In this document: one piece after another, positions 5,248-47,173 of the stretch
How positions within the stretch are numbered: position 1 is the stretch's first letter
Layout of the letters: each line of letters begins with the position of its first letter
Virus record (IMG/VR): IMGVR_UViG_3300045117_000178
Coordinates: 1 to 59,847 of that record
Direction: 5' to 3' (one strand)
Length of the DNA stretch: 59,847 nt
From: a virus
Lineage: Duplodnaviria > Caudoviricetes
The notes under the pieces: generated by a model
The model's input: the letters and a program-made list of their open reading frames with translations, nothing else
What the model was told of the DNA's origin: nothing
Database searches by the model: none
Program-made: the position numbers and the translations under genes

Positions 5248-5275
5248 AAAAAGCCATCGGAGCTAAGGTTATAAG
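5248..5275 (+). promoter_or_regulatory. ATAAG-class promoter motif
   Basis: AAAAA-N18-ATAAG, then AGAAAGGAGGT RBS. Confidence 0.75.
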
Positions 5276-6064: not shown

Positions 6065-6111
6065 ACCCCTCCCTCGGGCCGCGGCCGAGGGAGGGGGTTC
6101 TACTCTTAGCT
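6065..6111 (+). terminator. Hairpin + TTAGCT terminator
   Basis: CCCCTCCCTCGG...CCGAGGGAGGGG stem then TTCTACTCTTAGCT. Confidence 0.7.
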
Positions 6112-12316: not shown

Positions 12317-12343
12317 AAAGTGTTGATGATCTCTCGTTATAAG
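12317..12343 (+). promoter_or_regulatory. ATAAG-class promoter motif
   Basis: AAA-N19-ATAAG. Confidence 0.65.
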
Positions 12344-19041: not shown

Positions 19042-19058
19042 CCCCTTCCAGGTATAAG
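19032..19058 (+). promoter_or_regulatory. ATAAG-class promoter motif
   Basis: AAA-N19-ATAAG. Confidence 0.7.
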
Positions 19059-19084
19059 GATCATAACCTGGAAAGGAGGACATT

Positions 19085-20387: not shown

Positions 20388-20406
20388 ACCAAACCAGACA
20401 GACAGC

Positions 20407-20436
20407 AAGAACAACGCGGCCGCGTTGTTCTTAGCT
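20407..20436 (+). terminator. Hairpin + TTAGCT terminator
   Basis: AAGAACAACGCGGCCGCGTTGTTCTT palindrome running into TTAGCT. Confidence 0.7.
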
Positions 20437-20446
20437 AGAGCGCCTG

Positions 20447-20923
20447 TCAACCCCCCTTGAGCAAGGTCTTCGGCAGGGCCTCGAACATCTTCTCGAGCTC
20501 CGTGGGCGCAGCCTTCACGGCCTTCGGGTCCTTGGGCACCAGCTGTGTCGTGGGCTTGGCAAGCAGCCCCTCCAGCAGCTTGCGTAGGTCCTGGAACGCG
20601 GTCTCGGCCTGGGCCATGAGCTTCTTGATGTCCGGGTCGGTCTTGGCCTGCTGCGCGATGTCGACCCCATCCAGCGCCACCTGCAGCCCCTGCAGGACCG
20701 CGGCCTTGATCTTGGTGAACTTGGCGAGCGCGACCTTCACCTTCTCCATGTCCGTCTGGGTGGCAGCCCACGCCATGAAGACGGCCTCCGAGCTCTGGAC
20801 CGCGATCTGTGTGCCCCCGATCACCAGTCTGGCGGTGGCGTACGGGTCGGTGCCTTTGCAGTTGGTGAGGCCGGGACACCCGGCCAGCAGCACGAACAAC
20901 AGCACTGTCAAGATCTTTCTCAT
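20447..20923 (-). CDS. Lipoprotein
   Basis: MRKILTVLLFVLLAGC lipobox; AAGGAG RBS; upstream TTGTCA-N18-TAGCAT. Confidence 0.8.
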   Translation of the reverse strand: MRKILTVLLFVLLAGCPGLTNCKGTDPYATARLVIGGTQIAVQSSEAVFMAWAATQTDMEKVKVALAKFTKIKAAVLQGLQVALDGVDIAQQAKTDPDIKKLMAQAETAFQDLRKLLEGLLAKPTTQLVPKDPKAVKAAPTELEKMFEALPKTLLKGG

Positions 20924-20987
20924 GGTGGATCTCCTTTTTGCTGATGCTATAGCGACAAGACCGTCGATGACAAGCTAAGATCTGCGC

Positions 20988-21260
20988 ATGCGACGCTTCT
21001 ATCTGTACCGAAGCGTGGACGTCACTGTGGTATCGGGCACCGGCGTGATCGCGGAGGGTATCGAGTTCACCAATGGGTGGGTGGTACTGCGTTGGATCAG
21101 CTCAACTCCCAGTGTGATCTTCTACACGGATGTGGCCGACATGTTGAAGGTCCACGGTCACCATGGATTGACGACCATTCAGTGGGTAGATCGGGAGACA
21201 AAAACGGATAGCGTGAAAAGGTATAAGAACCATGACAGAGGACGGGAAACCGTGCTCTGA
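20988..21260 (+). CDS. Conserved phage hypothetical protein
   Basis: RRF.L.R..DV...SGTG..AEG.EF..G..V.RW...HGH pattern familiar from phage proteins. Confidence 0.75.
   Translation: MRRFYLYRSVDVTVVSGTGVIAEGIEFTNGWVVLRWISSTPSVIFYTDVADMLKVHGHHGLTTIQWVDRETKTDSVKRYKNHDRGRETVL
21200..21227 (+). promoter_or_regulatory. ATAAG-class promoter motif
   Basis: AAAAA-N18-ATAAG. Confidence 0.65.
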
Positions 21261-21368
21261 GCTGCCCTCGGCGTCCTACGACCTCGGGATGCCAATTCTG
21301 GGTGGCTGGAACCTCCGATCACCTCCTTTCTTGGTGATTGAAGCCTGATCGGGGGTTCCATTTTAGCT
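21232..21368 (+). ncRNA. Candidate small RNA with anti-Shine-Dalgarno loop
   Basis: Bracketed by ATAAG and hairpin-TTAGCT; three stem systems; contains GATCACCTCCTTTCT. Confidence 0.55.
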
Positions 21369-21377
21369 GGAGGGATC

Positions 21378-21596
21378 ATGGGCCACCGACTGAGACTGGA
21401 ACGGCGCAAACGACGAGTGCCGACCTCGTTCGTTCTGACGGCAGAGCAGCTCGCGTTCCTGCAGCAGAAGGCGAAGGAGAGCAGCGACCGATTGCACAAG
21501 CGGGTCCACGCCAGCCACATCGTGCGCGCTCTGATTCGGCGCGCGATGGACGAGGACCAGGAGAAGGGCAAGGTCTGGTATGACGAAGATCTCTAA
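21378..21596 (+). CDS. Ribbon-helix-helix-like DNA-binding protein
   Basis: TSFVLT..QL.FL...A...S.IVRALI; GGAGG RBS. Confidence 0.65.
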   Translation: MGHRLRLERRKRRVPTSFVLTAEQLAFLQQKAKESSDRLHKRVHASHIVRALIRRAMDEDQEKGKVWYDEDL

Positions 21597-22065
21597 GCTC
21601 GCACCGAAACCACCATCTCCACCCGCGCCCCAAACATACCCGGTGCCCTTTCCTGTGGCTGTGCCGGGAGCCACTCCACCGCTCAAGACCCAGAGGTCGC
21701 TGTTCAAGGACATGTTCGGGACCGATCACAGCGTTCTGGCCTTGGCGCTGGACAGTCACTGGGCCAACCCCGAACAGCGCGAGCTCGCTCTTCAGATCTT
21801 GTCAGGCCAAAAGTCCGTCTCCACCCTCACCGATTCCGAGCAGGAGGTCTTGGATGCGATCGTCCACAGCTACAACGATGCCGAGCGCCCCACCGGTACG
21901 CCTGTGCAATCAGCCAACGAACGACTGTCCGTACCTGGAGGTGCAGAGCAAGGACAAGACATGCAGCCTACCGGAGAACCTGATCTGCAAGATCGATCCC
22001 CCGACGAAGAAGGACCAGACTTCAGCGACGCCTACTCCTGGACAGAAGGAGGAGGACCAAAGTAG
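21580..22065 (+). CDS. Hypothetical protein
   Basis: 161 aa, acidic C-terminus. Confidence 0.65.
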   Translation: MTKISKLAPKPPSPPAPQTYPVPFPVAVPGATPPLKTQRSLFKDMFGTDHSVLALALDSHWANPEQRELALQILSGQKSVSTLTDSEQEVLDAIVHSYNDAERPTGTPVQSANERLSVPGGAEQGQDMQPTGEPDLQDRSPDEEGPDFSDAYSWTEGGGPK

Positions 22066-22080
22066 GAAGGCCGGCTTCTG

Positions 22081-22108
22081 AAACCCACCACTCCTTTCTT
22101 GGCATAAG
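22081..22108 (+). promoter_or_regulatory. ATAAG-class promoter motif
   Basis: AAA-N20-ATAAG with CCTTTCTTGG spacer. Confidence 0.75.
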
Positions 22109-22134
22109 GATCATAACAGAGAAAGGAGGGTAAT

Positions 22135-22308
22135 ATGGCCAAGCCCTTCAGTCGGGAGTGGGAGCTCGTATCGCCCAAGGTGTTCCGACTGAAAGTCTAC
22201 GGCGGCTGGATCGTTCATTTCGAGGATCTTTTCACCCCAACCACTGGGCACACCGCTCTCTGCTTCGTGCCGGATCCCCGGCACGAGTGGGAGCTCGAGC
22301 CGGCATAG
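22135..22308 (+). CDS. 57-aa hypothetical protein (not in ORF track)
   Basis: AGAAAGGAGG RBS; MAKPFSREWE...RLKVYGGWIV...FVPDP.HEW. Confidence 0.75.
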   Translation: MAKPFSREWELVSPKVFRLKVYGGWIVHFEDLFTPTTGHTALCFVPDPRHEWELEPA

Positions 22309-22342: not shown

Positions 22343-22411
22343 TCGAAGATGAGCGCGGATGTCAAGTATGAATGAACCGGTTTCCCAAATTTTTGGGAGC
22401 GTCGGCTTCTG

Positions 22412-22439
22412 AAATTCGATCTCCCTTTCTGGAGATAAG
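22412..22439 (+). promoter_or_regulatory. ATAAG-class promoter motif
   Basis: AAA-N20-ATAAG. Confidence 0.7.
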
Positions 22440-22443
22440 AGCC

Positions 22444-22721
22444 ATAGAAAGGATGAAGCAGAAATTACGGCCAATTCGTGTTCTGCGAGTCCTTTGCTTC
22501 CTAAGCGTGGGGGAAGAGATTCCCATCCCTAGTCCGTCCTAAGGAAAGGCACGTTCTCCGAAAGGAGTGACTGACGTAGCCAGAGCCCCCTGCTTCCGAG
22601 TCAACGCACCAGCGGCCGCGGTGTTCATGGGGATGTGCAGCGAACCCGATTGGCACGGGTTCGAGCTCTAGCGGAGCGTCTGCAAGAGGATCTCGGGGAG
22701 AGCTTCGGCTCTTTCTTAGCT
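22444..22721 (+). ncRNA. Candidate structured ncRNA (~275 nt)
   Basis: ATAAG to GAGAGC-TTCG-GCTCTT-TCTTAGCT; GAAA tetraloop and other hairpins; only a 29-codon ORF inside. Confidence 0.5.
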
Positions 22722-46382: not shown

Positions 46383-46408
46383 AAACCGATCCTCCTTCTT
46401 GGGATAAG
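46382..46408 (+). promoter_or_regulatory. ATAAG-class promoter motif
   Basis: AAAA-N18-ATAAG. Confidence 0.75.
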
Positions 46409-46458
46409 GATCGTAAGCCCAGAAATGGGTAACGATCCTTTGGCCAAAGGAGGAAAGG

Positions 46459-47119: not shown

Positions 47120-47147
47120 AAAACCGGACTGCCTTTCTTGGGATAAG
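47120..47147 (+). promoter_or_regulatory. ATAAG-class promoter motif
   Basis: AAAA-N19-ATAAG. Confidence 0.75.
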
Positions 47148-47173
47148 GATCGTAACCAAGAGAGGAGATTGTT

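Follow-up and report, generated by a model that had tools for sequence, protein, structure and literature searches.

Why should a phage carry, just ahead of a putative regulator gene, a copy of the extreme 3′ end of 16S rRNA? The question arises from a 59,847-nucleotide (nt) stretch of viral DNA (Duplodnaviria; Caudoviricetes; IMG/VR record IMGVR_UViG_3300045117_000178), analysed here over its whole length and called the window. Between its genes P0001 and P0002, on the + strand, the 15-mer GATCACCTCCTTTCT (21317..21331) is identical to the 3′ end of 16S rRNA, the part that bears the anti-Shine-Dalgarno (anti-SD) sequence. An earlier note on this DNA had read the surrounding unit as an RNA that masks ribosome-binding sites (RBSs) or mimics the ribosome tail, with a leaderless 38-aa open reading frame (ORF) or a decayed promoter spacer as alternatives, and had named RNA folding and covariation across relatives as ways to check it. 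From related phages and predicted folds, we argue that the unit is probably a real regulatory RNA, and we tentatively favour a leader/attenuator RNA whose short product can mask RBSs.

The motif was compared with the Rfam bacterial small-subunit (SSU) rRNA model on genome loci. Scanning the genome collection with the 15-mer returned at least 120 loci from many phyla, and in all six of those put through Rfam it covered the last 13 positions of the SSU model plus two extra bases, so that the earlier equation of 21317-21331 with the 16S 3′ terminus stands. The same model, RF00177, had no match on the window's own record. The exact 12-mer CACCTCCTTTCT, which is the complement of AGAAAGGAGG, is present once in the window, and allowing up to one mismatch gives three matches against 0.34 expected. 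Read on the minus strand, the motif is the longest SD in the window. As the earlier note had seen, it is followed by no minus-strand start codon: no ATG, GTG or TTG was found at RBS distance, and a minus-strand gene using the motif as its SD was rejected for want of one.

The P4 hairpin and its homologues

The + strand of 21200-21380 has a predicted folding energy of −76 kcal/mol (z −4.13), which none of 200 shuffles equalled, against −58.8 kcal/mol (z −2.36) for the − strand. The − strand folds worse because five G·U pairs and a GAAA loop exist solely on the + strand. In the predicted fold, three small helices precede a long hairpin. P1 (21236..21259) is a hairpin of CAGAG/CTCTG and ACGG/CCGT closed by the GAAA loop. 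P2 (21260-21267 with 21300-21307), a stem absent from the earlier description, encloses the P3 hairpin (21270-21277 with 21286-21293, loop ACGACCUC), and this P2/P3 region (21260..21307) contains four G·U pairs. The long hairpin, P4 (21307..21360), has a lower stem of 14-15 bp, 21307/8-21321 with 21346-21359/60, whose 15-nt arms are 93% complementary, and an apex of ~24 nt. Every stem that the earlier note had listed was recovered, in a + strand fold far beyond chance; the inner ATCACC/GGTGAT repeat exists but lies outside the minimum-energy fold, and the apex is predicted to be mostly open.

Relatives were found through the terminase, which led to 21 related contigs, and then by alignment searches with P0002 and P0003, which yielded three syntenic loci, G002, L294 and G009. 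Other routes were less informative. Searches based on P0001 turned up loci at 30-64% identity, 2 of them viral and 12 metagenomic, in other contexts of the broad phrog_7499 family and none with the element downstream; P0002 alone matched no viral contig; a P0003 profile run on 10 related records found G009 only; and the locus DNA had short, chance-level matches only in five related records.

Two of the three syntenic loci bear the hairpin. G002 (149 kb) has proteins 45% (P0001), 40% (P0002) and 32% (P0003) identical to those of the window, in the order P0001, hairpin, leaderless-looking P0002, P0003; its hairpin has 15 bp and an 11-nt loop within CTCCTTTCC, followed by six T and AG. L294, from a 178-kb contig, lacks P0001; past a divergent − strand lipoprotein gene come a full family box with GGTATAAGAA at its end, ~60 nt of structured sequence, the hairpin, P0002 and P0003. 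The L294 hairpin has 12 bp, with CTCCTTTCT in an open loop, then TTTTTAGCT, and P0002 starts 20 nt further on. The interval from the divergent gene to P0002 in L294 contains no further promoter-like site, which makes the unit the leader of P0002 there; as the sole available leader, it implies that the hairpin is read through at least partly and is not a complete stop.

Across the window, L294 and G002, the loop CTCCTTTC and the tail TTTTAG are invariant in the aligned hairpins (3/3), in phages whose flanking proteins are only 32-45% identical. The stem, by contrast with this constant loop, varies in a compensated way: the 12 aligned stem pairs are 93% paired although eight of them are changed on both sides, a result reached by none of 500 shuffles, and slid registers give 39-59%. 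The covariation that the earlier note had looked to as a check is apparent in these three hairpins. From the motif start to the P0002 ATG, the distance is 55 nt in the window and in L294 and 46 nt in G002. We conclude that a conserved RNA hairpin is very probably real. Conservation within the 15-mer is limited to 8-9 of its 15 bases, around the core CTCCTTTCT (21323-21331), and GATCAC belongs to the stem, which weakens the idea of a ribosome-tail mimic.

A closer comparison is offered by a variant strain, represented by low-depth contigs (depth <5) from one sediment run among the four DNA runs examined, for which differences near contig ends are unlisted. Five differences are listed: an extra A after 21199, a replaced P3 region, T>C at 21339, insertion of a C into the T run, and G>A at 21373. 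The new P3 region is diverged, with several single-base and 3-base indels, making P3 the least conserved part of the unit. In the contig covering it, P1 shows no listed difference; neither does the 15-mer, weak evidence given the unlisted contig-end differences. The extra A falls in an A run (window 21198-21200) and would end P0001 ~50 nt earlier in the variant, so that the last 18 residues of P0001, which overlap TATAAG and P1, would not be conserved coding sequence.

The boundaries of the unit and the pairing of its loop

Both ends of the unit, which the earlier note had bounded by ATAAG and hairpin-TTAGCT, coincide with signals that recur in this phage. At the 5′ end, TATAAG (21222..21227, + strand), the presumed −10, is a copy of a promoter-like ATAAG box with 19 occurrences on the + strand of the window and 7 on the − strand. 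Nine of them precede a GAAAGGAG-type SD and a start codon by 8-50 nt, several with a [C/T]TGAAA box ~19 nt further upstream. Downstream of the unit's own TATAAG, ACAGAGGA resembles the 5′ leader of the cassette unit at 22104, and the upstream box is merely A-rich (ACAAAAACGG). At the box, GGTATAAGAA is identical in the window and L294, and the L294 copy is preceded by the full family box. At the 3′ end, the tail TTTTAGCT (21361..21368, + strand) belongs to a hairpin-TTAGCT class. The + strand has 14 copies of TTAGCT and the − strand 3; nearly all + strand copies lie 0-11 nt after a hairpin, and 11 of the 14 are located 23-103 nt past a + strand ORF call, calls around these sites and the cassettes being those of a crude GC3-based script. 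Set against 1,990 background windows, the 45 nt upstream of the site fold at or below about the 5th percentile in 7 of the 14. We infer that the two signals mark the promoters and the ends of cassettes. With 2 nt between its end and its TTAGCT, P4 fits the end-of-cassette signal as defined in this analysis. The AGCT that is conserved past the T-rich stretch is unusual in a terminator tail.

Intrinsic terminators and attenuators consist of a GC-rich stem followed by a T run and lie between genes. P4 shares the GC-rich stem and the T run after a gene, and its L294 counterpart is flanked by a promoter-like box and the gene that it would control; nine of its 14-15 bp are G-C pairs, where the GC-rich stem of an intrinsic terminator needs five or more pairs in all. 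It differs in its large apex, in a T run of 4 (window), 5 (L294) or 6 (G002), and in its conserved AGCT and loop; the loop of the G002 homologue measures 11 nt. Since it is no complete stop in L294, the hairpin would be either a leaky terminator (attenuator) or a structural element of the leader; that it terminates or attenuates transcription we regard as somewhat more probable than not.

What does the loop offer to other RNAs? The GATCA of the 15-mer is locked in the P4 stem, and opening all 15 bases would cost 12.1 kcal/mol. The ten bases CCUCCUUUCU, by contrast, lie in the weakly structured apex, where opening costs 1.7 kcal/mol, and the predicted loop opening energy is 1.5-2.7 kcal/mol in the window, L294 and G002 alike. 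An accessible SD-complementary seed, as expected of a trans-acting small RNA, is thus present in silico. Duplexes of the loop with AGAAAGGAGG were computed at −12.5 to −15 kcal/mol for the three hairpins; seven actual SD regions from the window gave −15 to −22 kcal/mol. Candidate targets are concentrated on one strand: the window has seven cases of GAAAGGAG leading into a start codon and an ORF of ≥57 aa, six of them on the + strand, chiefly cassette genes, and G002 and L294 use such SDs too.

The exact 22-mer of the loop region has no match in viral contigs and none in genome contigs. An IMG/VR survey of the 15-mer gave at least 113 matches, with rough strand assignment. Among the matches listed, 87 are in the SD sense, 23 at an RBS, 46 within coding sequence and 18 intergenic; three of those listed lie in the anti-SD sense and clearly between genes, but not one resembles the window unit.

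These data are consistent with the following scheme. The segment ~21222-21368 would be the non-coding leader of the ribbon-helix-helix operon P0002-P0003 and, in the window, also the 3′ untranslated end of P0001. Transcription would start at the ATAAG promoter-like box, and the RNA would fold into three small helices, then P4 and UUUUAGCU, the phage's usual end-of-cassette signal. P4 would serve as a leaky intrinsic terminator at which most transcripts stop, giving an RNA of ~130 nt, with a minority reading on into the regulator gene. Its stem would display the mostly unpaired apex with CUCCUUUCU, the complement of the extended SD AGAAAGGAG(G) of + strand cassette genes, and the short RNA or the leader itself may pair with such SDs and block ribosome binding, as bacterial small RNAs with C-rich loops do. 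Pairing within the leader itself is a poor competitor, since P4 outcompetes it by ~16 kcal/mol and it is weak or absent in the relatives; for this reason we favour a leader/attenuator whose loop could mask RBSs in trans. That the loop does act by SD pairing is a cautious suggestion, somewhat short of an even chance. Of the earlier RNA interpretation, the non-coding unit, the hairpin (found here to be kept in two relatives) and the loop, predicted to be open, are retained, and the notion of a tail mimic has lost ground with the partial conservation of the 15-mer.

Were the loop to act on RBSs, it would represent a phage riboregulator that reads the generic SD consensus, and not one message, built into the leader of a regulator operon; it would provide a simple off-switch for a set of cassette genes and link transcription attenuation to translational control. 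A bolder extension, which we think unlikely, is that the leader-derived RNA shuts off the whole class of strong-SD messages at once, the phage's own or the host's, with leaderless genes escaping. Window P0001 and the P0002 homologues of G002 and G009 look like such leaderless escapees. Class-wide translational control by anti-SD display would, if true, be an undescribed phage strategy. On a more modest reading, the locus illustrates a compact cassette grammar (promoter-like box, SD, gene, hairpin-TTAGCT) in poorly known large lake phages.

Several observations weigh against this scheme. The covariation comes from three sequences only, and the L294 3′ arm can be aligned by MAFFT to the window 5′ arm as if the arms were order-swapped, so that a rearrangement may underlie part of the compensation. 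At the syntenic G009 locus, the hairpin is absent: P0002, leaderless in appearance, directly adjoins a minus-strand gene that has an RBS of its own, and the pyrimidine stretch there is the reverse of this genuine minus-strand RBS. At the 5′ boundary, TATAAG lacks the final T, and a sigma-70 consensus scan of 20400-22200 called no + strand promoter, TATAAG included. At the 3′ boundary, a consensus scan of the same interval for terminators (loop of 3-8 nt, five or more T among the 8 bases following the stem) returned no site; the P4 T run is only four, interrupted by the inserted C in one low-depth variant contig, and its ~24-nt apex is far above the usual terminator loop. Pairing energies do not separate the readings, because any CU-rich loop pairs with any SD in silico. 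Finally, the loop resembles the spacer of promoter-like boxes in the window and L294, making a DNA-level reason for its conservation possible.

Competing explanations

This DNA-level reason for the motif is the main rival. The unit would then be a structural terminator and leader only, ending P0001 transcription and insulating the cassettes, and CTCCTTTC would be kept as promoter or operator DNA of the ribbon-helix-helix gene, for example as the pyrimidine spacer of the promoter-like family or as a site just upstream of a −35, with no RNA action on RBSs. P4 does align with the promoter-like family, CTGGAA standing for the family's CTGAAA and TCCTTTCTTGG being the same as in unit 22104; the exact CTTTCTTGG has four copies in the window, all on the + strand, three of which adjoin an ATAAG box, and the L294 cassette at 890 has a similar pyrimidine spacer. 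In G002, a well-formed leaderless promoter (TTGGGC, 17 nt, TATGAT, 6 nt, ATG) has the motif at −46 to −38. The P0002 product has a predicted DNA-binding fold. However, an ATAAG box follows the motif in none of the three hairpins, P4 carrying TGATTG at that position, so that these are not family promoters; nor do G002's other cassettes have the spacer motif. The decayed promoter spacer of the earlier note is genuinely supported by the alignment with this family, with the box itself missing. A role in DNA also leaves unexplained why the arms stay complementary through two-sided changes and G·U pairs. We consider this explanation rather unlikely, if still one to be taken seriously.

A second possibility is a cis switch: some transcripts would have the SD of P0002 (GGAGGGAUC, 21369-21377) bound by the anti-SD stretch, so that translation of that gene alone is regulated, in a stretched form of the spacer-to-SD hairpins of other cassettes. 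Such hairpins are common in this phage: six of nine window cassettes have, in their minimum-energy folds, the pyrimidine spacer paired to the SD of the cassette itself (z as low as −6.6), as have L294 unit 890 and one G002 unit, which lends real weight to cis masking. In the window, pairing of GAUCACCUCC with GGAGGGAUC would yield −15.4 kcal/mol. Yet P4 is far more stable, blocking its 3′ arm costing 15.8 kcal/mol, and in the minimum-energy fold the SD is free of the loop; in L294 such pairing is weak (−9.9), and it is missing from G002 (−2.1), whose P0002 lacks an SD. This leaves the cis switch with a low probability.

Equally improbable, in our view, is a functionless relic, in which a terminator hairpin would harbour either a promoter module in decay or an RBS left behind by a vanished minus-strand gene, the 16S identity being then a matter of chance and ancestry. 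The TGATTG in place of the ATAAG box would fit such decay, as would the genuine minus-strand RBS at the same position in G009 and the fact that six of the 15 bases form the stem arm, also in L294. A relic would not be expected to keep its core 8-mer constant in three phages with flanking proteins so diverged and stem arms that differ, and the motif, the best SD complement of the whole window, is not decayed.

The 38-aa ORF (21232..21348, + strand), which could encode a leaderless peptide acting as a product or as a leader peptide controlling P4 formation, is quite improbable. Its ATG follows TATAAG at a distance of 4 nt, a GTG is found at equal spacing in L294 with the first three codons in agreement (two synonymous differences), and its stop codon falls at the beginning of the P4 3′ arm. 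Beyond these three codons nothing is shared: the L294 frame has 19 codons against 38, and G002 has none. There is no SD, and for a start at the A the box is rather close. In the variant contigs, single-base indels, not multiples of three, break the frame, which argues, weakly, against a conserved peptide and for a dispensable P3. We judge that the ORF is not a conserved protein, a leader peptide being still conceivable, and this alternative of the earlier note is not supported; conservation that follows the peptide frame, which would have spoken against an RNA, is not seen, the stem covarying and the frame being unconserved.

Least probable by far is a decoy of the 16S tail that titrates a tail-recognising protein or nuclease: for all the 15/15 identity with the rRNA end, and an upstream GGTGGCTGGAACCTCC that is like rRNA GGTGCGGCTGGATCACCTCC with gaps, 8-9 bases are conserved among the relatives, GAUCA is base-paired, and we know of no candidate tail-binding partner. 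A captured 16S fragment was likewise rejected: similarity extends poorly beyond the motif, and the relatives retain the core only. Directly 5′ of the 15-mer, GGTGGCTGGAACCTCC (window 21301-21316) matches rRNA GGTGCGGCTGGATCACCTCC at 16 positions with four gapped positions. The region resembles one and a half copies of the 16S end; this may be chance, and AACCTCC is also found in the L294 stem arm.

Known RNAs, neighbouring genes and cassette grammar

How does the unit compare with described RNAs? Over the whole window, Rfam at gathering thresholds gave no match, the 6C small RNA included; at E up to 10 over 20900-21700, the only match was a chance one to a mammalian long non-coding RNA model (16.4 bits against a threshold of 60). 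A search for tRNA and tmRNA found none.

A close parallel is the cuckoo RNA family of Alphaproteobacteria, described as having stems that vary by compensatory changes and loops that keep an anti-SD-like pyrimidine motif, with RBS occlusion proposed as their action (PMC4615179). The window unit has the same combination of variable stems and invariant anti-SD-like loop. Cuckoo RNAs are chromosomal small-RNA genes with 2-4 adjacent hairpins, each with CCUCCUCCC (PMC4615179), whereas the window unit has a single motif hairpin with CUCCUUUCU, its P1 and P3 loops being GAAA and ACGACCUC, and sits in a phage, in a regulator-operon leader. By the cuckoo definition of 2-4 hairpins with CCUCCUCCC, and by Rfam, the unit falls outside that family. 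The 6C small RNA of high-GC Gram-positives (PMC6486639) and S. aureus RNAIII (PMC2837412) are reported to pair C-rich hairpin loops with G-rich or SD regions. The unit has no Rfam match to them at E up to 10, and its loop is the full extended anti-SD, not a C run. The c4 antisense RNA of phages P1/P7 is described as blocking translation by pairing around the RBS through complementary bases in loops (PMC12197685); c4 is specific for ant mRNA, whereas the window loop complements a generic SD consensus common to many genes. With its negative Rfam result, its one motif hairpin and a different motif, the unit is not a member of the cuckoo, 6C, RNAIII or c4 families. No phage RNA said to mimic the 16S tail came up in full-text literature searches or in passages of a 2025 review of phage small RNAs, supplements excluded.

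The window, an IMG/VR virus record of 59.8 kb, makes up about one third of the genome by estimate; its sequence is present in lake-water DNA runs, and of the 14 runs listed for it none is RNA. DNA searches of the GenBank phage collection with the locus and with 1-25000 gave zero matches; a 618-aa window protein has 28-34% identity to phages of ~180-187 kb in that collection. A lipoprotein-like gene (20447-20923, − strand) neighbours P0001 (20988..21260, + strand, 90 aa), which matches phrog_7499 over residues 1-72 (E 4.6e-24), the domain stopping near residue 72 (~21203). Its start appears leaderless: TAAGAT, 6 bases, then ATG, with no SD. After a gap of 117 nt comes P0002 (21378..21596, + strand, 72 aa); its SD, GGAGGGA, begins 1 base after the TTTTAGCT tail and, with the ATG at 21378, spans 21369..21380. 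P0003 (21580-22065, + strand) has its start overlapped by the end of P0002.

P0002 is a probable ribbon-helix-helix regulator, on the evidence of its structure model. The ribbon-helix-helix fold is a strand followed by two helices over ~45 residues; the model is strand-helix-helix (E16-20, H22-39, H45-62; pLDDT 73), and ribbon-helix-helix proteins top the list of a VIA-align fold search, with Z of only 3.6-5.8 and a root-mean-square deviation of 1.0-2.6 Å over 44-53 residues. Foldseek against the PDB gave no match at E up to 0.001, a PDB sequence search returned nothing relevant, and no Pfam family above cut-off and no PHROG family was found.

Leaderless-looking starts, with a TANNNT-type hexamer 5-6 nt before the start codon and no SD, are seen at window 20952-20990 and at two further loci (L282 1790-1829; L284 1195-1223). 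They comprise window P0001 and the P0002 homologues of G002 and G009; window P0002 has a strong SD instead.

The cassettes of the window follow a common grammar, in which a [C/T]TGAAA-like box is separated by ~19 nt, often with C(T)CCTTTCTTGG at their end, from NATAAG(G)AT, and GAAAGGAG(G) and a start codon come next. G002 and L294 share the same box and SD. The ATAAG boxes of this grammar lie on the + strand at 5271, 17823, 19054, 19351, 22104, 22435, 46404, 46873 and 47143, with further copies at 12339 and 21223; the box could be a promoter −10 or an RNA loop motif. The + strand TTAGCT sites, nearly all after a GC-rich hairpin, are at 6106, 12810, 15201, 18188, 19316, 20431, 21363, 22337, 22716, 46867, 47112, 47609, 49863 and 50815, and the hairpin-TTAGCT sometimes runs directly into the next TTGAAA box. 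Upstream of ATAAG, the pyrimidine spacer is an inverted repeat of the cassette's own SD at window 22089-22128, 47131-47166, 19044-19080 and 46390-46455 and at L294 870-935. Spacer and SD partners covary (TTGG/CCAA, CCAGGT/ACCTGG, CTGG/CCAG), with + strand G·U pairs. The SD would therefore be masked in any transcript that contains the spacer, such as read-through from an upstream cassette. A full cassette box (GGCTTCTGAAA ... GGAGATAAGAG) at window 22397-22456 leads into AGAAAGGATG, whose ATG abuts the SD; no convincing ORF was called after it, and it is possibly another non-coding or degenerate cassette.

Perfect 15-base SDs also turned up elsewhere in the IMG/VR survey. In many unrelated viral contigs, the sequence lies in frame as R-K-E-V-I within a conserved coding sequence (motif E-G-x-D-L/M-R ... 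RKEVI), at loci L019, L023, L026, L041, L042, L048, L054, L059, L064-L066, L074, L077, L079, L090-L092, L101, L104 and L113; it could be an internal SD. Many other orphan SD copies have ATCT 5-10 nt downstream, in place of the usual start codon.

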